The notes under the pieces were generated by a model. It ran no database searches. It saw nothing but the letters and a program-made list of their open reading frames with translations, and was not told the DNA's origin. A DNA stretch of 47,935 nucleotides from a virus. The translations under genes and the position numbers were made by a program. Positions 1,191 to 39,964 of the stretch are shown one piece after another. The first letter of the stretch is position 1, and each line of letters starts with the position of its first letter. The stretch lies in the UHGV virus genome UHGV-0184477; one strand, written 5' to 3'.

Positions 1191-1338
1191 ATGATTTTCC
1201 GGTAACGCTTCGGCATTGTCGATAGTGTTGTAACGCAGCCTCTATAGCCGCGTTGTCGATGCCTGGCAGTTTTTCGCGCAGGTTTTTCTCTATGAATTGT
1301 TCGGGTTTCATTACCAACTCTCCACCACATTTGCGCAT
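1138..1338 (-). CDS. Hypothetical small protein (66 aa)
   Basis: Minus ORF tightly packed with its neighbours. Confidence 0.35.
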   Translation of the reverse strand: MRKCGGELVMKPEQFIEKNLREKLPGIDNAAIEAALQHYRQCRSVTGKSFDEMLYIAKQHYIKNKK

Positions 1339-1508
1339 TCATCATAAAATAAGAAATGCCTTGTTTTTTCTTCGTAACGCTTCATTTCAAATGCGATTAT
1401 GTCCTCCTGATAGTGAATTTTCTCCACCTGGCGAGCCACGCCGTCTCGCATTAGGATGTGATCGCCTTCTTTTATGTTTTTTGCAACAGTGCCAATTGTA
1501 ATCATCAC
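1311..1508 (-). CDS. Hypothetical small protein (65 aa)
   Basis: Minus ORF. Its start overlaps the ParB-like gene stop (ATGA-type coupling). Confidence 0.35.
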   Translation of the reverse strand: MMITIGTVAKNIKEGDHILMRDGVARQVEKIHYQEDIIAFEMKRYEEKTRHFLFYDECANVVESW

Positions 1509-2320
1509 AGCTTCTCCAGAATCGCCAGCACTTCATTCAGTTCAGCAGAGGGAAGGCGCAAAAATTCTTCTGTTTCCTGTGCCACGTGACCCTCAGCAAC
1601 AACCATGTGATCTGCTTCTTTCAGCAACTGAATCAGGCGGTCAATCGGCTTAACTTTTTTGGCCTTGAGCGTTTTCGCCGTCACCTTATCTTTGCCCTGC
1701 GCTTTCGCTTCCTCAACAGCAGCATCAATAACGTTAACGGCATCATCGCCATGCTCACGTGCGACTGCAACGGCGTTGGCATAGCTGATTTGGCCTGCAT
1801 TGATGCGTTGCTTGATAGCATCAGGCACATCACCAAGTGACAGATGCATCTGCACATCAGAAACTGAGCGGCCTACTTTTTTGGCGATTTCTTCATTCGT
1901 CCATCCGAACCCCTTCAGGCGCACATAAGCCTTTGCACGCTCAAGCGGGTCGAGTTGCTTACCCTGACTGGATGACACCATGAAGGCGATTTTATCCGCT
2001 TCATCGCCGGTGAAGTCTTTGCACTCAATGCGCACAATTGGTACGCCGCGCTCAATGGCGCGCAGTGCGCCAAGATAACGATGCTGGCCGTCAAGAATCT
2101 TGATTCTCTTTCCGTCAGCATCAGGAATAACAGTTAACGCCGGGATTGGTTGGCCTGATTCCCAGCACTGCGCGAAGTATTCAACGTGCTGCTCATCGGC
2201 TTCGCGGATGTTGTATCCCGGCTCAAGATAAAGCTGATCGACAGGAACCTGATAACCTTTGTTGACCACGATTCCGCCGCGAGTTTCTTTGTCTGAGTAA
2301 ATTTTTCCGAGAGATGTCAT
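1505..2320 (-). CDS. ParB-like nuclease-domain protein with C-terminal HTH (271 aa)
   Basis: N-terminal ILDGQHRYLGALRA segment matches the ParB/Srx (ParBc) arginine-containing box, followed by a ParB-type HTH (EEIAKKVGRSVSDVQMHLSL). Start refined to the ATG at 2320, which has a GAGGAAAAG Shine-Dalgarno sequence (MTSLGKIY...). Confidence 0.7.
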   Translation of the reverse strand: MTSLGKIYSDKETRGGIVVNKGYQVPVDQLYLEPGYNIREADEQHVEYFAQCWESGQPIPALTVIPDADGKRIKILDGQHRYLGALRAIERGVPIVRIECKDFTGDEADKIAFMVSSSQGKQLDPLERAKAYVRLKGFGWTNEEIAKKVGRSVSDVQMHLSLGDVPDAIKQRINAGQISYANAVAVAREHGDDAVNVIDAAVEEAKAQGKDKVTAKTLKAKKVKPIDRLIQLLKEADHMVVAEGHVAQETEEFLRLPSAELNEVLAILEKL

Positions 2321-2327
2321 CTTTTCC

Positions 2328-2444
2328 TCACTTTGATAAACAGATTGCACTGGCAATAGCGAATCCGATAACAATTAATGCCAGCTTGATTTTGAACTTG
2401 CCCCACGCCTTCAGGTCTTCTTTTCGGATTTCGTGGCGGATCAT
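2328..2444 (-). CDS. Small single-TM membrane protein (38 aa), not in the ORF track
   Basis: ATG at 2444 with a GGAG Shine-Dalgarno sequence 8 nt upstream. Translates to MIRHEIRKEDLKAWGKFKIKLALIVIGFAIASAICLSK and ends 8 nt before the ParB-like start. Confidence 0.35.
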   Translation of the reverse strand: MIRHEIRKEDLKAWGKFKIKLALIVIGFAIASAICLSK

Positions 2445-2722
2445 TGTGATTCTCCATTCTGAAAAATTCCACCAAACTCCTCAACAAGCTCATCAATGAC
2501 CTCATCAGCTTCCGCACTCATACCGGCAGCTGATAGCAAAATGTCAACGACCTCCTCATCTGGCACTTCAATTGCTGACATAAATTCAACGATGCATAAT
2601 TTAACAGCCTGATATTCTTGCTCATGGAGGCAGTTTGCAAGGCTGCATGAAACGGCGGCAATCAGTTTTGCCTTATCTTCTGCTTGGTTGTCTACATCAA
2701 ACATCTTCATCACCCCTAACAT
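2441..2722 (-). CDS. Acidic hypothetical protein (93 aa)
   Basis: Minus ORF. AGGGGTGA Shine-Dalgarno sequence near its start. Highly acidic C-terminus (DEVIDELVEEF). Confidence 0.45.
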   Translation of the reverse strand: MLGVMKMFDVDNQAEDKAKLIAAVSCSLANCLHEQEYQAVKLCIVEFMSAIEVPDEEVVDILLSAAGMSAEADEVIDELVEEFGGIFQNGESQ

Positions 2723-2743
2723 TTATTGTTGTTTCTACGTCAT

Positions 2744-2772
2744 CACTATAGCGACACCCTCAATCTACGTCA
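2744..2772 (-). promoter_or_regulatory. Leftward sigma70-like promoter TTGACG-17-TATAGT carrying the GTAGATT motif
   Basis: On the minus strand: TTGACG (2772-2767), a 17-nt spacer beginning TAGATTG, then TATAGT (2749-2744). A conserved 12-mer TTATGATAAAAT lies at 2777-2788. Confidence 0.55.
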
Positions 2773-2934
2773 ACACTTTATGATAAAATTAAACCAACAA
2801 CACTCAACCCGCGCTGTTCCGTCCTGAAAAACGTAAGGCGGCGAAATTGGATATAGCAATCGGCGTTATCGTCATGGCGCTTTCGCTGGTTCAGGTGTAC
2901 AGATGCTGGAAGTTCATCATTCGGAGAATAATTA

Positions 2935-3222
2935 ATGAGAGACGCGCTTCAGCACGCCGCAAACCAGATAATTAGTGGCACTGTCGGCCAGGTAATCGAC
3001 AAAGCCGGTTATACCTCCATCGGCACGGGTCTTGGCCTGAAGGTGGCAGAGCAGACGCCGGTCGCACAATCATACATTGCCTCAATGATCCCCCATTCGA
3101 TTACCGAGTGGGCAGCGGTAGCCTCTATACTTGGCGCGCTGTCACTGGTGGCAAAAAACCTTTTTGAGATGTGGTGGAAGATTCGGGAGAGCAAAAAGAA
3201 TGGCAGCACCGACAGCAAGTGA
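2935..3222 (+). CDS. Small membrane protein (95 aa)
   Basis: GGAGAATAATTA-ATG Shine-Dalgarno arrangement. Hydrophobic segment WAAVASILGALSLVA. Confidence 0.45.
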   Translation: MRDALQHAANQIISGTVGQVIDKAGYTSIGTGLGLKVAEQTPVAQSYIASMIPHSITEWAAVASILGALSLVAKNLFEMWWKIRESKKNGSTDSK

Positions 3223-3592
3223 ACTTGTCGCCGCCATGGCGTCAAGAGGCGTGACTATCACCACAGCAGACGCAACGGGAATCCTGTGTCTGGTGGCGAG
3301 CATCACAGAGTGTCTTGAGCTTAATTACCCTGAAGACACATGTAGGCAGGATGCAATTCTGCTATGGGCCTCAATCCTTATCGCCTCAAATACAGCCGGA
3401 AGATACATAACCAGCCACCGGGCGCCATCTGGTGCGTCGCAGTCATTTGGCTATGGCAGTAAGCCGTGGATGGCCCTTTACAATCAGATGAAGCTACTCG
3501 ATACGGCAGACTGCACAGGCGACCTTGTGGAAGAGCCTGATGGGGCAGCAAAGCCGTGGTTTCGTGTTGTCACCGGGAGTAAGTGCAGATGA
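3200..3592 (+). CDS. Putative head-tail connector / DNA-packaging adaptor (130 aa)
   Basis: Start refined to the ATG at 3200, which has a GGGAGAG Shine-Dalgarno sequence. Position and size fit a gp6-like connector. Weak call, not based on motifs. Confidence 0.35.
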   Translation: MAAPTASELVAAMASRGVTITTADATGILCLVASITECLELNYPEDTCRQDAILLWASILIASNTAGRYITSHRAPSGASQSFGYGSKPWMALYNQMKLLDTADCTGDLVEEPDGAAKPWFRVVTGSKCR

Positions 3593-3710
3593 AAACGTCA
3601 ACATTAACTGTAAATATCGCAATCCGTAAATGGTGCATGCCGCTGCTGGTTATTCTGGTATTGCTGCGCCTTCCTGTTCCGCGCTGGATTTATACTCTTG
3701 AGGCCGCACC

Positions 3711-4055
3711 ATGTCAGCGATAGCGAGATGGAGCTATACGCAGCCATGCACAATCTGGCGGCTTACTGGCAAGGATAAGTATGGCAAGCCAACATTCGCC
3801 GCGCCAGAGCCCATCATGTGTGATTATGGCTTCGATAAGAATCTGACCACCGGCACAGCTGGCAATGAGATTGCACAGAAAAACACATTCTGGACGGAAT
3901 ACCAGGATGCGTCTGTTGGCGACTTCATCATGCTTGGCACCATTACCAGTGCTGACCCGCTGGCCGCTGGAGCTGACCAGATTAGAAACGTCGTGAATTA
4001 CGGCAATACGCTAGACCGCAACGACCTGCCTGATTTTGCGCTGGTAACGGGGTAA
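3711..4055 (+). CDS. Putative head-closure / head-tail joining protein (114 aa)
   Basis: Size and position in the connector gene series. Loose resemblance to head-closure family proteins. Confidence 0.4.
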   Translation: MSAIARWSYTQPCTIWRLTGKDKYGKPTFAAPEPIMCDYGFDKNLTTGTAGNEIAQKNTFWTEYQDASVGDFIMLGTITSADPLAAGADQIRNVVNYGNTLDRNDLPDFALVTG

Positions 4056-4132: not shown

Positions 4133-4576
4133 TTGGCAACTGCACTACTGGATAAAATAATGGCCGCCAAAATGCGAGGTATCCAGCAGGCGATTAAGCG
4201 CACCCAGCAGATAGTCGGTGAGATTACTGGCGAGAAGGCGGTATCAGCAATAAAAGCCGCCAACTATATCATCAGGACTGAATCGGCTTCCATGACGCCA
4301 GTAGCTACATCGGTGCTGATAAACAGCCAGTATGATACTGTTGAGGTTAATGGCACTCGCATAACTGGCAAGATTGGGTATGCAGCTAATTATGCCCTGT
4401 ATGTCCACAATGCACCAGGTAAACTGCTGGGTACGAACACGCCACGCACAGGGAGACTCAAAGGAAAGGGTAACGTGTGGGATAAAAGCGGCGAGCCTAA
4501 ATTCCTTCTCAAGGCTGGCGAAAACACACGCGAGCTTGTCGATCAGGTAATTAAAAAAGAGATGACGCTAAAATGA
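4133..4576 (+). CDS. HK97 gp10-like neck/tail-component protein (147 aa)
   Basis: Position after the head-closure gene. Size and composition typical of the gp10 family. Confidence 0.45.
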   Translation: MATALLDKIMAAKMRGIQQAIKRTQQIVGEITGEKAVSAIKAANYIIRTESASMTPVATSVLINSQYDTVEVNGTRITGKIGYAANYALYVHNAPGKLLGTNTPRTGRLKGKGNVWDKSGEPKFLLKAGENTRELVDQVIKKEMTLK

Positions 4577-29894: not shown

Positions 29895-30088
29895 TGCCGA
29901 AAAAATCAAAGCAGGAGGTGTGGAAATCCGCTCAGCTTGAGGGTGTCGACCACTTCATAGCGGCAATCGCCAAAGCCTTTCCTGATGCGATTGAGGTGGT
30001 TCACGTTCAAAGCAATAACTGTAATGTTTGGTGTTATGCGAAAACTGATGTACAATCATCTCATCAATCATCACCCACCACCCTTTAA
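29891..30088 (+). CDS. Hypothetical protein (65 aa)
   Basis: ATGA coupling. Followed by a terminator. Confidence 0.4.
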   Translation: MMPKKSKQEVWKSAQLEGVDHFIAAIAKAFPDAIEVVHVQSNNCNVWCYAKTDVQSSHQSSPTTL

Positions 30089-30111
30089 CCCGCTTCGGCG
30101 GGTTCTTTTTT
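30087..30111 (+). terminator. Rho-independent terminator ending the rightward early region
   Basis: AACCCGCTTCGGCGGGTT hairpin plus TCTTTTTT. A motif-like ATCTACGCCATG sequence follows at 30113. Confidence 0.7.
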
Positions 30112-30168
30112 ATCTACGCCATGTGGTAAGATATGTCCTATGTGAGTTACTCAAAGGACACATATAAA

Positions 30169-30612
30169 ATGGCAAATCCGAACCCTAAGCACAAATTTTC
30201 ATCCAGCAATCAGCCACCACCAAGAGGAAAAAGCTACAGAACAGTGCTTCTTGAAGCATTACGTGCTGCAAATACGCCGATGAATGAGATTGAATTCGTC
30301 ACGTACTACATCAACAAAGCGATGACATGCGAAGACGCTCAGGCTACCGGCATGCTACGTGAGATATTCCTGCGGCTAAACCCGATTCCAAAGCCTGTAG
30401 CACCACCTGTGGAATTTGATTTCCCTGCTGATGGCACGCCTGTTCAAAAAATGGATGCGATTATCAAGGGCGTCTCTACTGGCGTTGTGCCAGCAGACAT
30501 CGGAAAGATGATGGCAGACATTCTGAAGGCCGGGCTTGATATCGAAGAAGTCACCGAACTTGCTGCAAGGCTTGAGCGACTGGAGAAGTTACTGGAGCAG
30601 CAGAATGTTTAA
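30169..30612 (+). CDS. Putative terminase small subunit (147 aa)
   Basis: Immediately upstream of terL. Basic N-terminus and a coiled-coil C-terminus (LAARLERLEKLLEQQ). Start refined to MANPNPKHK. Confidence 0.45.
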   Translation: MANPNPKHKFSSSNQPPPRGKSYRTVLLEALRAANTPMNEIEFVTYYINKAMTCEDAQATGMLREIFLRLNPIPKPVAPPVEFDFPADGTPVQKMDAIIKGVSTGVVPADIGKMMADILKAGLDIEEVTELAARLERLEKLLEQQNV

Positions 30613-30760
30613 ACTATCAATGTCACTAATGGCCTGTGCCATGCTCATGTTTGCTATGGGTGATAAGTCAAACGAGATTGCATTTGCGATATGGGGCATC
30701 ATGTTCATGATGTCAGCAACAATAATTACTATTGTGGGAACATCCCGCCATGGCTCGTAA
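30605..30760 (+). CDS. Small two-TM membrane protein (51 aa) overlapping the terS/terL junction
   Basis: ATG inside the TerS stop region (ATGTTTAA). MFKLSMSLMACAMLMFAMG...IWGIMFMMSATIITIVG. Confidence 0.35.
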   Translation: MFKLSMSLMACAMLMFAMGDKSNEIAFAIWGIMFMMSATIITIVGTSRHGS

Positions 30761-32174
30761 GCGCCTCTCCGCACTGGCAATCGAAAAGCTGGAAGAAGCG
30801 GTTGGTAACTCCATAGGGAAGCCTGACTCTGCTGTTTTCGGTATTGTCGATAAGCTACTTGATGACGGTACGCCAAATGTTATCAAGCGACTTAAAATGA
30901 CTCAGGATGGCGTATCAGAGACAACTGAAGAGCCAACAATCCTCATTCCTGAACGTATGGAGCTTTTGCTTTATCCGCGCCGGTTTAAGGTCTTCTATGG
31001 CGGAAGGGGCAGCGGCAAAACGGCTAACGTCGTTTCCTATCTTATCGAAAAGGCAAGATTCAGAAATTGCAGGGTTGGCTGCTTCCGGGAAATTCAGAAC
31101 TCAATCAAGCAATCAAGCTACACAGAGCTCGTTGATGAAATTAACAGAAAGGGACATGCGCATGAATACAGGTGCGTAGATGGCGAGATAACACACTACG
31201 GCACGCGGTCAAAGTTCGTGTTCCGGGGCATGTGGCGCAACATCACGGCCATTAAAGGGATGGCTGGGCTTACCGATGTGTTCTGCGAGGAGTCGGAGAA
31301 CATTAGTCAGGTATCATGGGATACACTCATCCCTACAGTTCGCGCCTCTGGATCTGAAATTATTATTGTTTTTAACCCAAATCGGGAAACCGATCCCACG
31401 TGGACAAACTTTGTTGAGCCGTATGTGGATAAGATGGTTGATGGGATATATCAGGATGATGATATTGTCGTTGTGAACGTTAACTACATCCATAACCCCT
31501 GGTTTACCGAGGAACTTAAACAGCACATGAACCAGATGAAGGCTGTTGATTATGACCGCTATCTGTGGGTTTATGAGGGGTTATTTAACCGGCGTTCAGA
31601 TGAAGCTGTTCTTGGGGGTAAATGGCAGACTCTTGATTTTGAGCCGTCGCCAGATTGGGGCGGGCCTTACTATGGTATTGACTTTGGTTTCTCACAGGAT
31701 GCCACGGCAGCAACTGAATCTTATGTCGAGGATTTGGGCGGCGGAAGAAGAAACCTGTATATCTACCGCGACTTTGCAAAGGTTGGTCTTGAGATAACTG
31801 ATACGCCAGAGGCTATGCGACTGGCATTCCCGGGTTCAGAAAAATACAGATGGTATGGCGACTGCGCAAGGCCAGAAACAATAAGCCATATAAAGCGCTC
31901 AGGATTTGATATCCATCCGTGCGCAAAGTGGCCGGGCAGCATTGAGGACGGAATCACATGGCTCAGGGGTTGTGACAGGATTTTTGTTCACGAAAGATGT
32001 AAGACTGTCATTGAGGAGTTTACTCTTTACAGCTACAAAGTGGACAAGCTCACGGGAAATATACTTCCTGATATCATCGACAAGTACAACCACGCCACAG
32101 ATAGTTTGCGCTATGGCCTTGGCGATCACATTGTGCAGCGTGGTTCTGGATGGATTAGACGGAGCAGAAGATAA
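30750..32174 (+). CDS. Terminase large subunit (474 aa)
   Basis: Walker A FYGGRGSGKT, an ATPase core and a C-terminal RNaseH-like nuclease region. Start refined to the ATG at 30750, because the track start is a TTG. Confidence 0.9.
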   Translation: MARKRLSALAIEKLEEAVGNSIGKPDSAVFGIVDKLLDDGTPNVIKRLKMTQDGVSETTEEPTILIPERMELLLYPRRFKVFYGGRGSGKTANVVSYLIEKARFRNCRVGCFREIQNSIKQSSYTELVDEINRKGHAHEYRCVDGEITHYGTRSKFVFRGMWRNITAIKGMAGLTDVFCEESENISQVSWDTLIPTVRASGSEIIIVFNPNRETDPTWTNFVEPYVDKMVDGIYQDDDIVVVNVNYIHNPWFTEELKQHMNQMKAVDYDRYLWVYEGLFNRRSDEAVLGGKWQTLDFEPSPDWGGPYYGIDFGFSQDATAATESYVEDLGGGRRNLYIYRDFAKVGLEITDTPEAMRLAFPGSEKYRWYGDCARPETISHIKRSGFDIHPCAKWPGSIEDGITWLRGCDRIFVHERCKTVIEEFTLYSYKVDKLTGNILPDIIDKYNHATDSLRYGLGDHIVQRGSGWIRRSRR

Positions 32175-32202
32175 GAAGTCTCCCTCATGAGAGGGAGTTT
32201 TA
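32175..32202. terminator. Bidirectional rho-independent terminator
   Basis: GAAGTCTCCCTCATGAGAGGGAGTTTTAT. Confidence 0.75.
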
Positions 32203-32394
32203 TCAGTGTGGTACTGAGTGTTCAGGTAATTGAGGTATTGGCATTTGACCTACTGGTGTTTTTTCACACCTGACACACTGGTAGCACCAGTAAGGCTGCC
32301 CATCACGAAAACGATACCAGTCTTTTGTCTCTCCGCATCTTGTGCATGTGTAAAATCTACTTTTGTTGTCAGAAAAAACCATTTTACGTCCCAT
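32203..32394 (-). CDS. Small Zn-ribbon protein (63 aa), antisense to the late genes
   Basis: CTRCGE...CYQCVRCE four-Cys pattern. AAGGGA Shine-Dalgarno sequence. It has its own leftward promoter. Confidence 0.5.
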   Translation of the reverse strand: MGRKMVFSDNKSRFYTCTRCGETKDWYRFRDGQPYWCYQCVRCEKTPVGQMPIPQLPEHSVPH

Positions 32395-32439
32395 ATCCCT
32401 TTCCTTATAGCCGCATTACCTCTCCGCCTCAATAACCAC

Positions 32440-32468
32440 AATCTACATCAACCACGAATCCACGTCAA
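32440..32468 (-). promoter_or_regulatory. Leftward promoter TTGACG-17-TAGATT, plus an upstream second motif copy
   Basis: Minus strand: TTGACG (32468-32463), a 17-nt spacer, then TAGATT (32445-32440). A plus-strand TATAAT lies at 32473-32478. Confidence 0.45.
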
Positions 32469-32481
32469 CATTTATAATAAA

Positions 32482-32772
32482 TTATTTATAAAGCCAGCAA
32501 TGAATCCCTGCATTGCGCATGGCGGCATAAATCACATCATCAGACACGACCGCCATTGCCACCCTGTCAGCGTCAATCTGCTGGTGCGAAGCCATGATGT
32601 CATCATAGAAAACATCGTTAGCATGCAGCCACTCATACGCATGCTTCGCCCTCATAATCAGCACATCATGCCCGGCAGAGTAGAGTGACTTAGCCAGCGC
32701 AACGTTACCAGCAATAGCATTTCCTTCCGCATCACACAGCACACCATCAAGCTCGAAAATGACACATTTCAT
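32482..32772 (-). CDS. Mini HAD-motif protein (96 aa)
   Basis: MKCVIFELDGVL resembles HAD motif I with Glu in the nucleophile position. VVSDDV resembles motif IV. Too short for a full HAD fold. Confidence 0.4.
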   Translation of the reverse strand: MKCVIFELDGVLCDAEGNAIAGNVALAKSLYSAGHDVLIMRAKHAYEWLHANDVFYDDIMASHQQIDADRVAMAVVSDDVIYAAMRNAGIHCWLYK

Positions 32773-32798
32773 AAGATTTCTCCGAGAGGTTTCATTTT

Positions 32799-32839
32799 AA
32801 TCTACGCCATGCTAGAATCTACGTCAAGGCGCATTGACA
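32799..32839. promoter_or_regulatory. Divergent promoter region: leftward TTGACG-17-TAGATT and rightward TTGACA
   Basis: Minus strand: TTGACG (32827-32822), a 17-nt spacer starting TAGATTC, then TAGATT (32804-32799). A second motif ATCTACGCCATG lies at 32801-32812. Plus-strand TTGACA at 32834-32839. Confidence 0.45.
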
Positions 32840-32860
32840 TAACTACATCACAGGGGCACC

Positions 32861-33157
32861 ATGAAGGCATACTCATCTTTTTCGTGGGAGCAGAAGGAAA
32901 AAATATACTCACTCGCAAGAGCTGGTGTTTCTGATGAGGCGCTGTGCGAAAGGTACGATGTTGATGAGGCCATTCTGCTGCGCATGTATGATGAGGTGCT
33001 GTGTGAGTTACAGCGACGCCGGGGATACAGTGGGCTGAAGACGATTAATGATTTCTTTCGGAATGTTGAGATAAATAGCGGTGAAGGTGATGATAAAGAA
33101 AAAGCTGCAAATGAAGATGCGCAAAGCTGCAATGGAGAAGTACACGAAAAAAATTGA
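32861..33157 (+). CDS. Hypothetical protein with possible HTH (98 aa)
   Basis: IYSLARAGVSDEALCERYDVDEAIL is an HTH-like segment. Acidic C-terminus. Confidence 0.4.
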   Translation: MKAYSSFSWEQKEKIYSLARAGVSDEALCERYDVDEAILLRMYDEVLCELQRRRGYSGLKTINDFFRNVEINSGEGDDKEKAANEDAQSCNGEVHEKN

Positions 33158-33497
33158 TATTAGCTTTATTGATGGCGTCGGCATGTACAATCACGCCTGC
33201 CATCTGAATGCAGTGAATCGCGCAAGGGTAGGAAACAGCGCCGCCGTTGTCGAGGTTGTTATGATTAATGATGACTCAGTGACAGCGCATTACATCAACA
33301 TGCAGGCAGATGGTAAATTTGTTGATTACACACTTGGATGGCACTGGTCTGGAGCTGACTACCGGTTTGTGAGATACGTTCCTTTCACTGAATGGAGTGA
33401 TATAACCAGTTCGCTTGAGCGTCTCAAGGCAGAACTTTGCAAGCCAGTCAGCAAATGGATGCGCGCCTTTATGTTAACTAATAACGAAATGTGTTGA
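33090..33497 (+). CDS. Hypothetical protein (~135 aa; start uncertain)
   Basis: ORF in a different frame that overlaps the previous gene. Several candidate ATGs between 33090 and 33132. Confidence 0.35.
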   Translation: MIKKKLQMKMRKAAMEKYTKKIDISFIDGVGMYNHACHLNAVNRARVGNSAAVVEVVMINDDSVTAHYINMQADGKFVDYTLGWHWSGADYRFVRYVPFTEWSDITSSLERLKAELCKPVSKWMRAFMLTNNEMC

Positions 33498-33505
33498 GGT
33501 GATTT

Positions 33506-33685
33506 ATGATTATTGAAGGTCATACAAAATTAGATGTGTGCAATCTAATAATTAATGGGAGACTGTCAGATGAGCATGATTTGATGTTGTGTCAATTCCA
33601 CGATACTGTAATCATCGACAAACATCAGGCCGCGCAGCTTATCGAAGTCCTGCAACGCTGGGTTGATGGCGAGGAGATTGAGTGA
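33506..33685 (+). CDS. Small protein (59 aa), not in the ORF track
   Basis: GAGGTGA Shine-Dalgarno sequence 4 nt before the ATG. MIIEGHTKLDVCNLIINGRLSDEHDLMLCQFHD.... Its stop overlaps the next start. Confidence 0.35.
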   Translation: MIIEGHTKLDVCNLIINGRLSDEHDLMLCQFHDTVIIDKHQAAQLIEVLQRWVDGEEIE

Positions 33686-33981
33686 TGAGCGAATACCTCT
33701 GGTGGTGCGGGCTGGTTGCCAATATCGCTGTGGCGATGTTTGCCCTGCTTGTTGTTGGGGTGTGGTTTATTTTTCCGGCAGTAGAAGCTATAAGCATGGT
33801 TAGATACTACAAGGCAATCGCCAGGGAATATCCTGATGTTAAGCTGAAAGGATTTTTTCGCATGTTTGCTGGCTGCTATGAGCCTTTCGGCCGCAGCTTC
33901 GAAAGTATGAGATGTGCTTATGGCTATTGGGATGGCGTTGGAAAGTGGCGCGTTTATAATAACGAGGATAGCGACAAATGA
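33685..33981 (+). CDS. Membrane protein (98 aa)
   Basis: N-terminal TM segment WWCGLVANIAVAMFALLVVGVWFIF. Confidence 0.45.
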   Translation: MSEYLWWCGLVANIAVAMFALLVVGVWFIFPAVEAISMVRYYKAIAREYPDVKLKGFFRMFAGCYEPFGRSFESMRCAYGYWDGVGKWRVYNNEDSDK

Positions 33982-34175
33982 GCATTTACTTTTATCATGG
34001 ACACATTGAGGAACCAGCATCTGGGCGTAATGTTGGCAACTTCTGCGGAACTGTAACTGCCTCTGATGCCATAAGGGGATTTGATGCTGCTTACGACAAG
34101 CAAGTTCAATACATTAACTCAAAAGGCGGAAGAGGATATTCTGTTATTTTTGATAAATTCGAAAAGGTGGAGTGA
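33978..34175 (+). CDS. Hypothetical protein (65 aa)
   Basis: ATGA coupling with the previous gene. Confidence 0.4.
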   Translation: MSIYFYHGHIEEPASGRNVGNFCGTVTASDAIRGFDAAYDKQVQYINSKGGRGYSVIFDKFEKVE

Positions 34176-34396
34176 TGAAAGCTGTCAAAACAATCCTGTT
34201 CTGCATCATCAATCCGCACCTGATTGTGATGCTGGTATTCGCTGCCATGCTTCTTGGCGCAAGAAAGTCGCTTTATTACCTTTCCGACAAGCTGGATGAT
34301 GCTGCGCGTTACATTCAGAATGTTGACTATAAACTCGGTGCGAAGTCATACCCCGCATGGTTCAGATCGCTTGTTGATGATGGGGTGAAGAAATGA
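34175..34396 (+). CDS. Membrane protein (73 aa)
   Basis: AAAAGGTGGAG Shine-Dalgarno sequence. TM segment ILFCIINPHLIVMLVFAAMLLGA. Confidence 0.45.
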   Translation: MKAVKTILFCIINPHLIVMLVFAAMLLGARKSLYYLSDKLDDAARYIQNVDYKLGAKSYPAWFRSLVDDGVKK

Positions 34397-34593
34397 AAAG
34401 ATTCCTTTTAGCGTGGGCCTTACTATTCTCGGTATTAATGGCGTGCCTTGCACTGGCCTTCCAGGTTGCATGGTTCATCAAGTGGCAACCACCAATGCTG
34501 AGCGATATCATGAATATCGGCGTGCTGCGCATTGCGTTGTTTATGTTGGTTGCGTCTATGGTTGGCGCATTGTTTCTTAGCAGGGTTGATTGA
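34393..34593 (+). CDS. Two-TM membrane protein, possible lipoprotein (66 aa)
   Basis: LLAWALLFSVLMAC-LALAF has a lipobox-like LMAC. A second TM segment is at IALFMLVASMVGALFL. Confidence 0.4.
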   Translation: MKRFLLAWALLFSVLMACLALAFQVAWFIKWQPPMLSDIMNIGVLRIALFMLVASMVGALFLSRVD

Positions 34594-34599
34594 GTGTGG

Positions 34600-34785
34600 A
34601 TGATGTCGTATTTCTTCCTGATATTCGTAATCACAAGCAATACTTCCAATATGCAGGTGGTGCCAATGCAAAGCATGGAGCAGTGCAGGGCGGCCGTTAC
34701 GGCGATGAAAATCGCTGAGGAAAAGCGGACGTGGCATGATGTAAGTCCAGATGTTGACAGTTTACAATGCGTTGAGGTGAAGTGA
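34600..34785 (+). CDS. Small protein with N-terminal hydrophobic/signal-like segment (61 aa)
   Basis: MMSYFFLIFVITSNTSNMQVVPMQS. Confidence 0.4.
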   Translation: MMSYFFLIFVITSNTSNMQVVPMQSMEQCRAAVTAMKIAEEKRTWHDVSPDVDSLQCVEVK

Positions 34786-34946
34786 TGCAACTATTCTGGT
34801 CTTTCTGGGTGCCATTTAATTTTCTCTTCTGGTGGTTCGCCGCCCTAAAGGTGAATAACCCTGGGTGGAGGCACGTAGTAGCGGGAACTGTTTTTGCATT
34901 TGTCACGGGGATGGTTCCGTTCCTGATATATCAGGCGATAAAATAA
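34785..34946 (+). CDS. Two-TM membrane protein (53 aa), not in the ORF track
   Basis: TGATG overlap with the previous gene. [21 protein letters not shown]...[18 protein letters not shown]. Confidence 0.4.
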
Positions 34947-34960
34947 CACCCACACCATGC

Positions 34961-34991
34961 TATAATCCCATCCATGCGATGGGATTTTTTT
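34961..34991 (+). promoter_or_regulatory. TATAAT box plus strong hairpin/T-run immediately upstream of the portal gene (terminator or attenuator)
   Basis: TATAAT at 34961-34966. Hairpin AATCCCATCCATGCGATGGGATT followed by TTTTTT (34964-34991). The portal ATG is at 35003. Confidence 0.45.
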
Positions 34992-35002
34992 ATGGTGACG
35001 AA

Positions 35003-36445
35003 ATGTCAAAGTTAGAGGCGGTAAACGCCTATATTCAGCAGCGAGTGGCGAACAATAACAGACTCATCGAGCGGCAGCGCCGGGAGTTTGGCGGTGTAAA
35101 CATAGACCAAAAGCACACCCGACTATATGTCGAATGCGGCTACCCTGAAGAAATCACCGCTGAGATGTTCCGCTATGCTTATGAGCGCTATGCACCGGCA
35201 ACAGCTGGCGTCAATCGCGTGCTTGATAAGTGCTGGCAGACTCCGCCGCAAATCCTCGAAGAAGGCGCCGATGATAAGGCTAGCACCCCATGGGAGGAGG
35301 CCGCCAATAAGCTGTTTAAGCGCGCCGCGCCATTCATCAAGGATGCTGACCGCCGCAACCTCATCAACCGCTATTCCGGCCTCATCCTGCAAATCCGTGA
35401 TGGGAAGCAATGGAATGAGCCTGTAGACACCACGAAAACAAGACGCATCAAGGATGCTGCCATTGTCCGTTACATTCCCGTATGGGAAGAACAGCTTCGT
35501 GTTAGTGAGTGGGAGAATGACGAAGCCAGCGAGGACTATGGTCAGCCGAAGATGTACGAATATCAGGAGTCGGTAGTCGGCGCCTGCAACAGCGACGGAA
35601 AACCAACGCGCTCCCTGAGCATTCATCCAGATCGCATTATCGTATTTGCCGAGGGCGCGATGGATGGCTCCATTTACTCCGGCGTCCCGCTCCTGCGTGC
35701 CGGGTACAACCACCTCATCGACATGGCGAAAGTCACCGGCTCAAGCGCCGAGGGCTTTCTGAAAAATGCCAGTCGGCAGCTCAACGTTAATTATAATAAA
35801 GACAGCGTTTCCGCTCAGTCTCTGGCGCAGCAAATGGGTGTGCCGCTGGAAGAGCTGGCGGATGTGCTCAATGAGGATGTGGCGCGCCTGAACGAGGCGA
35901 TTGACGCTGCAATGTTCACGATGGGCGCTGATGTCAAAGTTCTCTCAGTGACGCCAGCGGACCCAAGCCCCACCTGGACTATTGCAGCCAATCAGTTTGC
36001 AGCATCCATCAAAAAGCCATTCACCATCCTGTTTGGTCAGCAAACTGGCCGCCTTGCATCCGATGAAGATAAAACCGACGACGCCATGAGCGCCAAGCAG
36101 CGCCGTGAGGACTGGCTGGACTACATCATCTCGGTATTCATCGACCGGATGATTTCCTTTGGCATTCTGGATAAGGCGCCAGAGAGCGGCTATTACTGCA
36201 AATGGGATGACCTGCTTGCACCTTCCGAGCTGAACAAGGCCGAGCTGCTGGTTAAACTTGCCACCGCAAATAAATCTGTATTCGATGCAGGCCAGATGGC
36301 CCTGATGACCGCTGATGAGATGCGCGGCATTGTTGGTATGGAACCTCTGGAAGAGCAGCTCCCTGACGGATTGCAGGAGGGTCAGCAGCAAGACCAGACA
36401 GACGACCAGCAGCAGGACCAGAGCGATGCGCCTCCTCAAAATTAA
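35003..36445 (+). CDS. Portal protein (480 aa)
   Basis: Size, position after terL, and an acidic Gln/Asp-rich C-terminal tail. Start refined to [10 protein letters not shown], which has a GGTGA Shine-Dalgarno sequence, because the track ORF begins upstream at a non-ATG codon. Confidence 0.8.
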
Positions 36446-38929: not shown

Positions 38930-39367
38930 ATGAAACTATCAACGCGCGGAAAGAATTTAATTAAATCTCATGAAGGGCTGGTGCTTGCAGTCTACCCCGA
39001 CCCGGCAACCGGAGGCGCCCCGTACACCGCTGGATACGGCCATACCGGAAGCGACGTTAAGCCGGGAATGAAGGTCACGCAGGCAATGGCTGACGCATGG
39101 TTTGATAAAGACGTAGCGAAATTTGAAAGCGGCGTCTCTTCACTCATCACATCCCCGACAACTCAGGGCCAGTTTGATGCAATGGTGTCACTGGCCTATA
39201 ACATCGGGCTTGGTAACTTTGGCAAATCAACTCTGCTGAAAAAGCATAACGCCCGCTGCTACACCTGCGCCGCCGACCAGTTCCGGGTGTGGAATCGTGC
39301 TAATGGCAAGGTCATGAACGGACTCACTAAGCGCCGCGCTGCCGAACGTGAGGTATACATGTCATGA
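38930..39367 (+). CDS. Endolysin, GH24 (T4/lambda-type) lysozyme
   Basis: KSHEGLVLAVYPDPATGGAPYTAGYGHT contains the catalytic Glu/Asp/Thr triad spacing of T4 lysozyme. AGGTAACAA Shine-Dalgarno sequence. Confidence 0.85.
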   Translation: MKLSTRGKNLIKSHEGLVLAVYPDPATGGAPYTAGYGHTGSDVKPGMKVTQAMADAWFDKDVAKFESGVSSLITSPTTQGQFDAMVSLAYNIGLGNFGKSTLLKKHNARCYTCAADQFRVWNRANGKVMNGLTKRRAAEREVYMS

Positions 39368-39597
39368 AGCACCTAAGCAACTGGCTTATCGGCATTTGGG
39401 CATCATTCTGTTCGCTGATTCAGCTCTGGCCTGACGCTATGGTTCATGTGTGGGCTTTCATGCCTGAAGACCTCAAATCTGCCATTCCTCCGATTGCGGT
39501 AAAGGCGATCAGCTACAGCATCCTTCTTGCCTCGCTGTTTGGAAAAATGCACGACATGAAGAAAGAGATTAAGGCGCTGAAAAATGACCAGAATTAA
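39364..39597 (+). CDS. Holin-like two-TM membrane protein (77 aa)
   Basis: ATGA coupling to the endolysin gene. Two hydrophobic helices and a charged C-terminus. Confidence 0.5.
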   Translation: MKHLSNWLIGIWASFCSLIQLWPDAMVHVWAFMPEDLKSAIPPIAVKAISYSILLASLFGKMHDMKKEIKALKNDQN

Positions 39598-39964
39598 GTT
39601 AATTCTAATCGCCATAGGCGTCGCGGTAATCATTGCTGCATCTGGTTATGGCGCTGGATACATGAAGGGATGGTATGCGCACAGCGAAAAAGTTAATCGT
39701 GACGCAGAAAAGCGCAGGCAGGAGGTGCAAAGCAAGCAGGCTAAGTCCACGGAGCAATCTCAGCAGGTGCGCGTTGTGACTGAAACCAAATACAAAACCA
39801 TTTACCGCGACGTGGTGAAATATGTCTCCGACCCGAATCGTAATGTGTGTGTTTTTGATGACAACTATCAGCGGTTGCGCCAACAATCACTCGACGCCGA
39901 CGCCTCCGTCAGCAGAGATGCTAGGTCAGGTGTGCGAATTATCGAAAGTGGCGCCAAAAAATAG
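39584..39964 (+). CDS. i-spanin (Rz-like; 126 aa)
   Basis: N-terminal TM anchor (LILIAIGVAVIIAASGYG) with a coiled-coil periplasmic domain. Overlaps the holin-like gene end. Confidence 0.65.
   Translation: MTRIKLILIAIGVAVIIAASGYGAGYMKGWYAHSEKVNRDAEKRRQEVQSKQAKSTEQSQQVRVVTETKYKTIYRDVVKYVSDPNRNVCVFDDNYQRLRQQSLDADASVSRDARSGVRIIESGAKK

Follow-up and report, generated by a model that had tools for sequence, protein, structure and literature searches.

Background

Small genes which sit, with their own promoter and terminator, inside a morphogenesis operon are known from lambdoid phages as morons, and one of them encodes HK97 gp15, a small protein of the inner membrane which keeps DNA from entering. 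T4-like phages possess hyperplastic regions, which hold small genes of unknown function and fast turnover, many of them encoding membrane proteins. Small exclusion proteins are also familiar, namely Imm and Sp of T4, the Sie proteins of P22, and the Cor and Llp lipoproteins of T1/phi80/T5-like phages. Here we describe an island of small genes between the terminase large subunit gene terL and the portal gene of the virus genome UHGV-0184477, a DNA of 47,935 nucleotides; this whole stretch is called the window below, and all positions refer to it unless a fetched locus is named. The island, from 32.2 to 34.95 kb, is in our judgement likely to be a hypervariable accessory-gene slot between terL and portal, kept by Roufvirus/Skatevirus-like enterobacterial siphoviruses.

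The anatomy of the slot, the conservation of its position, its mosaic gene content and the purifying selection on its genes are direct observations. Moreover, the comparison of genomes lets us conclude with high confidence that the island would be lineage-conserved, insulated and bidirectional, with a content that turns over by cassette exchange. Its genes and their two flanks are as follows, with lengths in amino acids (aa).

30750-32174, plus strand: terL, which flanks the island on the left (E = 6e-54 to PHROG families of the terminase large subunit)
32203-32394, minus strand: A, 63-aa NinD-family zinc-ribbon protein, a variable leftward cassette (Pfam PF17466; phrog_8091)
32482-32772, minus strand: B, core protein of 96 aa whose sequence is HAD-like in a degenerate form (FELDGVL ... 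SDDVIYAAMRNAG; phrog_415)
32861-33157, plus strand: C, 98-aa core protein, possible helix-turn-helix (HTH) protein (phrog_13301, E = 4e-40)
33111-33497, plus strand: D, soluble protein of about 126-128 aa, start at 33111 or 33117, overlapping the end of C (phrog_6596, E = 7e-40)
33506-33685, plus strand: E, 59-aa core protein with variable N-terminus and conserved C-terminal motif IIDKHQAAQLIEVLQRWVDGEEIE (presence matrix and homologue alignment)
33685-33981, plus strand: F, 98-aa protein with one N-terminal transmembrane helix (hydropathy; phrog_2531)
33978-34175, plus strand: G, 65-aa soluble protein (phrog_26739)
34175-34396, plus strand: H, 73-aa protein with one N-terminal transmembrane helix (hydropathy)
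34393-34593, plus strand: I, 66-aa protein with two transmembrane helices (hydropathy)
34600-34785, plus strand: J, 61-aa protein, hydrophobic over a short run at its N-terminus and having two conserved cysteines (phrog_26819, E = 4e-42)
34785-34946, plus strand: K, 53-aa hydrophobic protein, probably with two helices (hydropathy)
35003-36445, plus strand: portal gene, which flanks the island on the right (E = 3e-98 to phrog_146, portal protein)

Conservation and mosaic content of the island

The 47.9 kb window shows about 90-94% nucleotide identity to Klebsiella siphoviruses related to Aeromonas phage pIS4-A (Roufvirus type), and for the stretch from 30.0 to 37.5 kb the best single database record covers at most 76%. 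The Roufvirus-like phages were grouped in 2025 as a putative subfamily "Roufvirinae", sister to the Skatevirus cluster, in a study which stressed the extensive mosaicism of the group and listed homologues of genes C and B as conserved (PMC11769527); the Skatevirus tree was rooted on Roufvirus in the BASEL paper (PMC11990801). Our detailed comparison set consists of 13 fetched relatives, that is 12 Roufvirus-like phages and the E. coli Skatevirus Bas81, or 14 genomes with the window included.

One layout is common to all 13 relatives: terL is followed by none to four leftward genes, a divergent control region, five to nine small rightward genes, a terminator and then the portal gene. The leftward genes always include the 291-nucleotide gene B, except in Bas81, which has other leftward genes. 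Beyond this set, parts of the window island are common to 122 phage records, none of them with a coverage of 80% or more, and parts of the Bas81 island to 226 records, just three of which have at least 80%.

Inside this constant frame the gene content is mosaic. The 112 island proteins of the 14 genomes cluster into 31 families, five of which are membrane-protein families, and the window island carries four of these five, more than any of the 13 relatives. According to the presence/absence matrix over the relatives, B, C and E are the core genes, and A, D, F, G, H, I, J and K are each found in a different subset of the genomes. Nucleotide similarity breaks into blocks at gene boundaries (32483, 33094, 33608-33690, 34170-34390, 34393-34605, 34584-34787 and 34954), and from 34947-34956 onward similarity to all relatives is back; the pattern of these blocks is that of cassette exchange by recombination at the boundaries. 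In other genomes the slot encodes enzymes (an HNH endonuclease, a DNA methyltransferase and an HslV-like peptidase) as well as an antitoxin-like HTH protein and a predicted transporter.

These observations bear directly on the initial annotation, in which the region was a 2.7 kb block inserted into an otherwise contiguous terL-portal pair, bringing envelope proteins which would exclude superinfecting phages, mask receptors or regulate the holin, and which expected a comparison of the terL-portal junction across relatives to reveal both insertion and accessory status. Accessory status is indeed what the comparison gives for the cassettes, each being found in part of the relatives only, and insertion is not. 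In favour of such a block are the terminators on its borders, the candidate promoters of its own and its four membrane-protein families out of five. The point of departure of such an insertion is however already contradicted, as terL lies directly beside portal in none of the 13 relatives; every one of them has the island at this site, with conserved backbone genes and regulatory DNA, the membrane genes occur in other genomes singly and in varying combinations, and the lysis genes are 4 kb away. We thus regard the inserted block as quite improbable. Since the island is found at the same position and with the same architecture in all 13 relatives, it is an ordinary feature of the lineage and not a one-off insertion.

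The small open reading frames as genes

All the open reading frames (ORFs) which had been named in the initial annotation, namely leftward A and B, rightward F, H, I, J and K, and a further small gene L upstream of the island, are present at the coordinates given for them, and four more rightward ORFs, C, D, E and G, lie in the island. The tight coupling that was claimed for them can be read from the sequence at five junctions, with TGATG overlaps at E/F, G/H and J/K and ATGA overlaps at F/G and H/I, and most starts are preceded by strong Shine-Dalgarno sequences, long and of the GAGGTGA type. For each ORF with a homologue, non-synonymous differences per site divided by synonymous ones (pN/pS) against close relatives give 0.03-0.27, uncorrected values from comparison pairs which overlap phylogenetically and are not independent, with a uniform direction. 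For example, B differs from its relatives by 13-24 synonymous and 2-7 non-synonymous substitutions, and I by 19-24 synonymous and 13-18 non-synonymous ones, with synonymous sites roughly one-third as many. The small ORFs are real genes under purifying selection.

It is hardly credible, on this evidence, that the ORFs are annotation noise and that the region is a non-coding spacer or is read in another frame. The ORFs are certainly very short (51-98 aa), and long antisense ORFs run at 33625-34020 and 34362-34790, one of which has been annotated in phage F14; but pN/pS is well below 1 in the proposed frame of every gene, the starts are coupled and carry strong Shine-Dalgarno sequences, PHROG families cover most of the ORFs, and homologues exist in distant phage groups. 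The antisense ORFs, for their part, lie over cassettes that change from genome to genome and so cannot be conserved.

Promoters and terminators

The regulatory elements of the island, together with the members of the motif family to which its leftward promoters belong, are listed below.

32440-32468, minus strand: candidate promoter of the variable leftward cassette, TTGACGTGGATTC-N4-TTGATGTAGATT (-35 TTGACG, -10 TAGATT)
32799-32827, minus strand: candidate promoter of B, TTGACGTAGATTC-N4-CATGGCGTAGATT, which overlaps that of the rightward unit and is nearly invariant in five relatives
32805-32818, plus strand: candidate rightward extended -10-like promoter CGCCATGCTAGAAT for the C-K operon (pattern CRCCATG-N(1-4)-TAnnAT)
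32180-32197, both strands: hairpin, candidate terminator in both directions, in the gap from the terL stop to the end of gene A (folding at -13.5 and -13.2 kcal/mol, with z of -3.3 and -3.7)
34953-34993, plus strand: candidate insulator before portal, made up of an extended -10-like element CACCATGCTATAAT (34953-34966), a hairpin (34964-34986) and a T-run
2763, 7314, 20276, 20286, 23315, 26789, 32441, 32817, 32841, 38854, 38878, 41027, 21998 and 31482: sites of the GAYGTAGWT family (longer form TTGACGTAGATTG)
2441-2722, minus strand: 93-aa anti-restriction gene directly downstream of a TTGACGTAGATTG promoter (PHROG anti-restriction family, E = 5e-34)

The two leftward genes had each been credited with a private TTGACG-17-TAGATT promoter. 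Two exact matches do exist on the minus strand, at 32440-32468 and 32799-32827, and with at most one mismatch there are three sites against 0.18 expected; what does not hold is that they are private, for they are two members of a genome-wide family of predicted promoters. In fact TTGACGTRGATTC with at most two mismatches occurs at 12 sites in the window against 2.1 expected, and its core GAYGTAGWT at 14 sites against 0.77, a count which was reached in no shuffle. Nearly all of these sites are intergenic and just upstream of gene clusters, with TTGACG as the -35 element and TATAGT or TAGATT 17 nucleotides downstream; in both leftward promoters of the island the motif recurs in degenerate form as the TAGATT "-10". 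The motif is conserved at syntenic sites in phage GP-1, including those upstream of the helicase and VRR-NUC genes, and is seen in a variant form in the control region of the Skatevirus Bas81. A literature search for the motif TTGACGTAGATT returned no paper with this sequence in a phage context. Since the family also precedes the anti-restriction gene and replication genes, we are moderately confident that its promoters are early ones and that A and B would be early genes. Moreover, the segment 32424-32482 is conserved only in relatives with an extra leftward gene between B and terL, whatever the family of this gene, and such a distribution, limited to genomes where a leftward cassette follows, points to a fixed promoter before a swappable gene.

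On the rightward strand, the pattern CRCCATG-N(1-4)-TAnnAT is found three times in the window against 0.14 expected, at 30117-30132, 32805-32818 and 34953-34966, and these extended -10-like sites head three consecutive rightward units, namely the terS-like gene with terL, the genes C-K, and portal. The first and the third of them are each paired with a terminator of the upstream unit, the first following directly on a terminator at 30087-30104. The sequence TTGACA at 32834-32839 was considered as a -35 element of the rightward operon and discarded, there being no suitable -10 element ahead of the ATG at 32861. Directly beside gene C, conserved over 32861-33094, stand three direct GTAG(A/T)T repeats.

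The hairpin and T-run that had been reported between the island and portal are present, the hairpin at 34964-34986 folding at -17 kcal/mol (z = -3.6). The 34953 element overlaps its 5' arm, so a transcript starting from this element would miss the full hairpin; in the annotation of phage GP-1 by its authors, a "host promoter" that overlaps a terminator stands at the same place before portal. At the other end of the island the hairpin at 32180-32197 has a good T-tail on the plus strand and a weak one on the minus strand. With candidate promoters and terminators present at the level of sequence, the earlier view of the island as transcriptionally set apart is retained.

The leftward genes A and B

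Gene A had been described as a zinc-ribbon protein, which can now be made more precise. It matches the Pfam family NinD (PF17466) at 62.5 bits against a gathering cut-off of 35 (E = 4e-17, residues 16-58 on positions 3-45 of the 57-position profile), and its cysteines (C17xxC20...C37xxC40xxC43) form a four-to-five-cysteine zinc-ribbon pattern. It is by this score and by the shared cysteine pattern that A resembles NinD of the lambda nin region; unlike lambda NinD, it adjoins packaging genes instead of lying in a nin-type delayed-early region. Among the 13 relatives A is found in SCNJ1-C only, at 97% identity; there the A homologue (locus about 1500-1807) is intact and unannotated, as is the K homologue of the same phage (about 3472-3689).

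Gene B is present in all 12 Roufvirus-like relatives at 93-98% identity, with pN/pS of 0.03-0.13, and is not found in Bas81. The initial annotation called it a HAD-motif protein, and deposited records label it "polynucleotide kinase" (RefSeq) or "phosphatase" (two GenBank records). A remote profile match does link it to phrog_415 (E = 9e-13), a family labelled polynucleotide kinase, while searches gave no match in Pfam (E <= 0.1), NCBIfam (E <= 0.1) or the sequences of the PDB (E <= 1), and the family is tiny, with seven proteins found among 1.84 billion representatives in an exhaustive HMMER search. B is like the HAD phosphatases and the phosphatase domain of T4 polynucleotide kinase in this phrog_415 match, in its N-terminal hhhF-x-L-D-G-V-L and in its C-terminal SDD...AG, and the alternation of strands and helices in its predicted model fits as well, at low model confidence; it differs from the HAD superfamily in having just 96 aa, no cap domain and a Glu in place of the nucleophile Asp. 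Where motif I should read DxDx(T/V), B reads F-E-L-D-G-V, with the Glu in all close homologues, and its only distant relatives, P0022 and P0023, have Ser or Ala there. As the catalytic Asp is missing, the labels polynucleotide kinase and phosphatase are unsupported; considering also that no curated HAD or polynucleotide kinase model and no PDB entry matches it, we do not class B as a HAD phosphatase. B may be a degenerate version of a HAD-like fold that has another role. The AlphaFold2 (AF2) model, built on an 8-sequence alignment, has a mean predicted local distance difference test score (pLDDT) of 47.8, which is too low for a fold search.

The small membrane proteins

Six membrane proteins had been claimed in all, one of them, L, outside the island:

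30605-30760, plus strand: L, hydrophobic protein of 51 aa, encoded between the terS-like gene and terL (hydrophobic segment 25-43)

When hydrophobic segments are estimated by hydropathy, as Kyte-Doolittle windows of 19 residues with a value of at least 1.6, clear hydrophobic helices are found in F, H, I, K and L, and the claim stands for these five; J is marginal, since its hydrophobic run has 11-12 residues and a hydropathy maximum of 1.18.

The six proteins have different distributions. The F family is spread over 141 phage records, which come from several groups unrelated to each other (among them Dhillonvirus, Kagunavirus and large myoviruses), and has two invariant motifs, a juxtamembrane WF..P.VEA.S..R and FGR...W.G.G.W.V in the C-terminal region; in its AF2 model (13 sequences, mean pLDDT 63.3) the transmembrane helix alone is confident, and the model is too poor for a fold search. 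H is found in 26 records, all at 80-95% identity, with pN/pS of 0.15-0.26. I belongs to no PHROG family, and its 29 records are exclusively of Klebsiella phages. J is in 33 records, including a Pantoea phage and 35-39 kb Klebsiella phage records with prophage-style names. K, which has one segment above the threshold and a Trp/Phe-rich N-terminal segment, is also without a PHROG family; its 32 records are mostly of Skatevirus-cluster phages of E. coli, Salmonella and Shigella. L, with one segment above the threshold and a second hydrophobic stretch, is found in 25 phage records and differs from XY3 by four synonymous and no non-synonymous changes; it occupies a separate small variable slot, in which VLCpiS13e and Bas81 have an HNH endonuclease.

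For I a lipobox-like LMAC had been pointed out. The motif reads YMIC in several homologues, the Ala at -1 being replaced by Ile, and YMIF in F14, where the Cys itself has become Phe, and the hydrophobic run extends well beyond the Cys. Because the lipobox is not conserved among homologues, I as a lipoprotein and substrate of signal peptidase II was rejected. The I homologue of F14 (locus about 3760-3960) is intact and unannotated, a 627-nucleotide antisense ORF being annotated across this stretch.

What these proteins do can be approached from database matches only in part. The initial annotation recognised no family for any of them; in fact nine of the ten island proteins scanned belong to PHROG families, and A to Pfam NinD as well, where the PHROG family of B is labelled polynucleotide kinase and the other eight families are of unknown function. 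PADLOC gave no defence-system match for ten island proteins at E <= 0.1, NCBIfam gave nothing above its curated cut-offs for the island proteins and one chance-level match (I, E = 0.014), and the island has no Rfam match and no tRNA gene was found. Lysis was considered as well: no island protein matches a PHROG lysis family, and the endolysin, holin and Rz-like spanin form a cassette at 38930-39964, about 4 kb from the island. Because of this cassette the island proteins are not canonical lysis genes, their role as lysis regulators was rejected, and the holin regulation suggested earlier is unlikely.

Considering the ATGA/TGATG overlaps along the operon and the several membrane proteins among its products, one might suppose that the rightward small proteins make up one multi-subunit membrane complex, their coupling reflecting stoichiometric co-assembly. 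The distributions of F, H, I, J and K across genomes are different and largely uncorrelated, and on this ground a single complex is rejected as very improbable. For example, I is confined to Klebsiella phages when K is mostly in phages of E. coli and Salmonella, and F is in Dhillonvirus and large myoviruses when J is in the 35-39 kb Klebsiella records with prophage-style names; overlap coupling, moreover, also joins cassettes which are unrelated in other genomes.

A somewhat unlikely alternative is that the small membrane proteins, like the rest of the cassettes, serve anti-defence or the takeover of the host, acting against membrane-associated host immunity or envelope stress pathways, rather than the exclusion of other phages. 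Among the genes that relatives carry in this slot are those for a DNA methyltransferase and an antitoxin-like HTH protein, the promoters of the leftward genes are of the same type as that of the anti-restriction gene at 2441-2722, and a rapid turnover of cassettes is what an arms race would produce; yet no protein matches a known family of such function in PHROG, Pfam, NCBIfam or PADLOC.

The other rightward genes

Gene C is found in all 14 genomes, and its first 78 residues are kept in all relatives, including the Skatevirus. Its homologue has been listed as a core gene under the name "InsA C-terminal domain protein" (PMC11769527). The match to Pfam HTH_Tnp_1 is weak (E = 0.13), and a PDB sequence search with C gave chance matches to ribosomal proteins only. 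D is in 49 phage records, with pN/pS of 0.04-0.17, and its homologues at 35-41% identity are in N4-like podoviruses of Klebsiella, Salmonella, Erwinia and E. coli. In E, the last 75 nucleotides or so (33608-33690) are 90-97% identical even where other parts of the gene diverge. The E genes of two relatives deserve mention: in pIS4-A (locus 4365-4562) the C-terminal third alone matches (39% coverage) and a stop codon interrupts the match, and in KlebP_265 the conserved C-terminal part alone matches (46% coverage). The G family is present in 10 of the 14 genomes, with pN/pS of 0.10-0.12 against close relatives.

Proposed organisation of the slot

To sum up, the hypervariable accessory-gene slot which we favour would consist of two transcription units set back to back, with a terminator on either side to insulate them from the genes for packaging and head. 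In the leftward unit a promoter of the phage-wide TTGACGTAGATT type would drive the conserved B, and a second copy of it whichever cassette sits between B and terL, here the NinD-type A. The rightward unit would be driven by the CGCCATGCTAGAAT promoter, which overlaps the leftward one, and its string of translationally coupled small genes would open with the conserved C and include the conserved E, with interchangeable cassettes between and after them; those of the window include the four membrane proteins F, H, I and K and the marginal J. Related phages would then swap cassettes by recombination ending at gene boundaries and at short conserved linkers. The activity and the timing of the promoters are suggested by their motifs. 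That the variable cassettes are dispensable for laboratory growth is held with moderate confidence; that the small inner-membrane proteins act singly on the envelope, host defences or competing phages, and are not parts of the virion or of lysis, is put forward with low confidence.

Several points weigh against this picture. The promoters and terminators of the island are consensus matches only, and a general sigma-70 scan is not enriched in the region (9 sites found against 11.1 expected). The rightward membrane proteins have no functional annotation in PHROG, Pfam, NCBIfam or PADLOC, and the AF2 models of B and F are too poor for use. B, C and E may have a needed function, so the region may not be simply optional. 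For the Salmonella phage seszw, a Skatevirus, a genome-reduction study reported that 65% of the genes are removable and that "genes 3-10" were lost spontaneously (PMC9825161); by analogy with the numbering of Bas81, in which terL is gene 3 and portal gene 12, this loss may overlap the island.

A more elaborate picture, which we think unlikely and offer as speculation, is that the slot is an organised exchange platform, in which C, a possible HTH protein next to a cluster of GAYGTAGWT repeats, reads the phage-wide GTAGAT motif and times the early genes, and F, H, I and K, perhaps with J, are independent effectors that block the DNA entry of competitors or disarm membrane-bound defence by an undescribed mechanism; F would be the best candidate for a general function.

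Flanking genes and annotations

Outside the island, the terL genes of the relatives differ in size and structure. In pIS4-A terL has 2520 nucleotides (fetched locus 1210-3729) against 1425 in the window phage, and in F14 (fetched locus 1-1926) it is annotated as two pieces with a 696-nucleotide leftward gene between them, which suggests that an intein or homing endonuclease may have been inserted in the terL of some relatives (pIS4-A, F14). The terS-like ORF at 30133-30612 probably starts at its second Met, 30169, since this is where its PHROG match and the annotated homologues begin, and since the -10 element of the candidate promoter ends at 30132; the KlebP_265 paper found the small terminase subunit not identifiable in this phage group. 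The portal gene of GP-1 (fetched locus 1882-3336) is annotated with an "anti-CBASS Acb1 phosphodiesterase domain", and in PQ465216.1 an "anti-CBASS protein Acb1 family protein" lies under the portal match, with the portal label absent. Both Acb1 labels look like annotation transfer.

Altogether the value of these results is practical more than conceptual, as the biology is what would be expected of phage accessory regions. Annotators of Klebsiella phages that are candidates for therapy should treat the terL-portal island as a lineage-wide plasticity hotspot; the "polynucleotide kinase" and "phosphatase" labels of B need correction in deposited records, from which several real small genes are also absent. 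The conserved promoter motif could be used for early-gene prediction across the phage group, and the island offers biologists a compact set of candidate host-interaction genes, including four small membrane proteins together in one genome.

Comparison with known systems

The small exclusion proteins are the first to be compared. The island membrane proteins are like Imm and Sp of T4, Sie of P22 and Cor and Llp in being small, membrane-located and phage-encoded, and unlike them in that a sequence relationship was not detected and the sole lipobox-like motif, that of I, is not conserved. Likewise, no sequence similarity to HK97 gp15 was found among the island proteins.

As a whole the island is like the lambdoid morons, since it holds small, horizontally spread genes, with a terminator and candidate promoters of their own, between conserved morphogenesis genes. 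Cassettes A, D, F, G, H, I, J and K are present in some genomes and absent in others, as morons are, while the whole island and the genes B, C and E occur in every Roufvirus-like relative. Insulation by a downstream terminator is seen at the sequence level (32180-32197 and 34964-34993), and candidates for promoters of its own, matching the consensus and drawn from enriched motif families, stand in the right places and are conserved in relatives. Expression from a prophage is not applicable here, as the annotated relative has no recognisable lysogeny functions. Unlike morons, the slot itself is conserved in the lineage, with backbone genes and fixed regulatory DNA, up to 11 genes and two divergent units. 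The resemblance to the hyperplastic regions of virulent T4-like phages lies in the fixed position between conserved modules and in the small genes of fast turnover, many of them encoding membrane proteins, and the difference in the other phage group and the much smaller scale. The linker genes B, C and E may guide the recombination. The closest concept is then the lambdoid moron and, more broadly, the hyperplastic region, from which the island is set apart by its three-gene scaffold, its fixed regulatory DNA and the lytic lifestyle of the phage.

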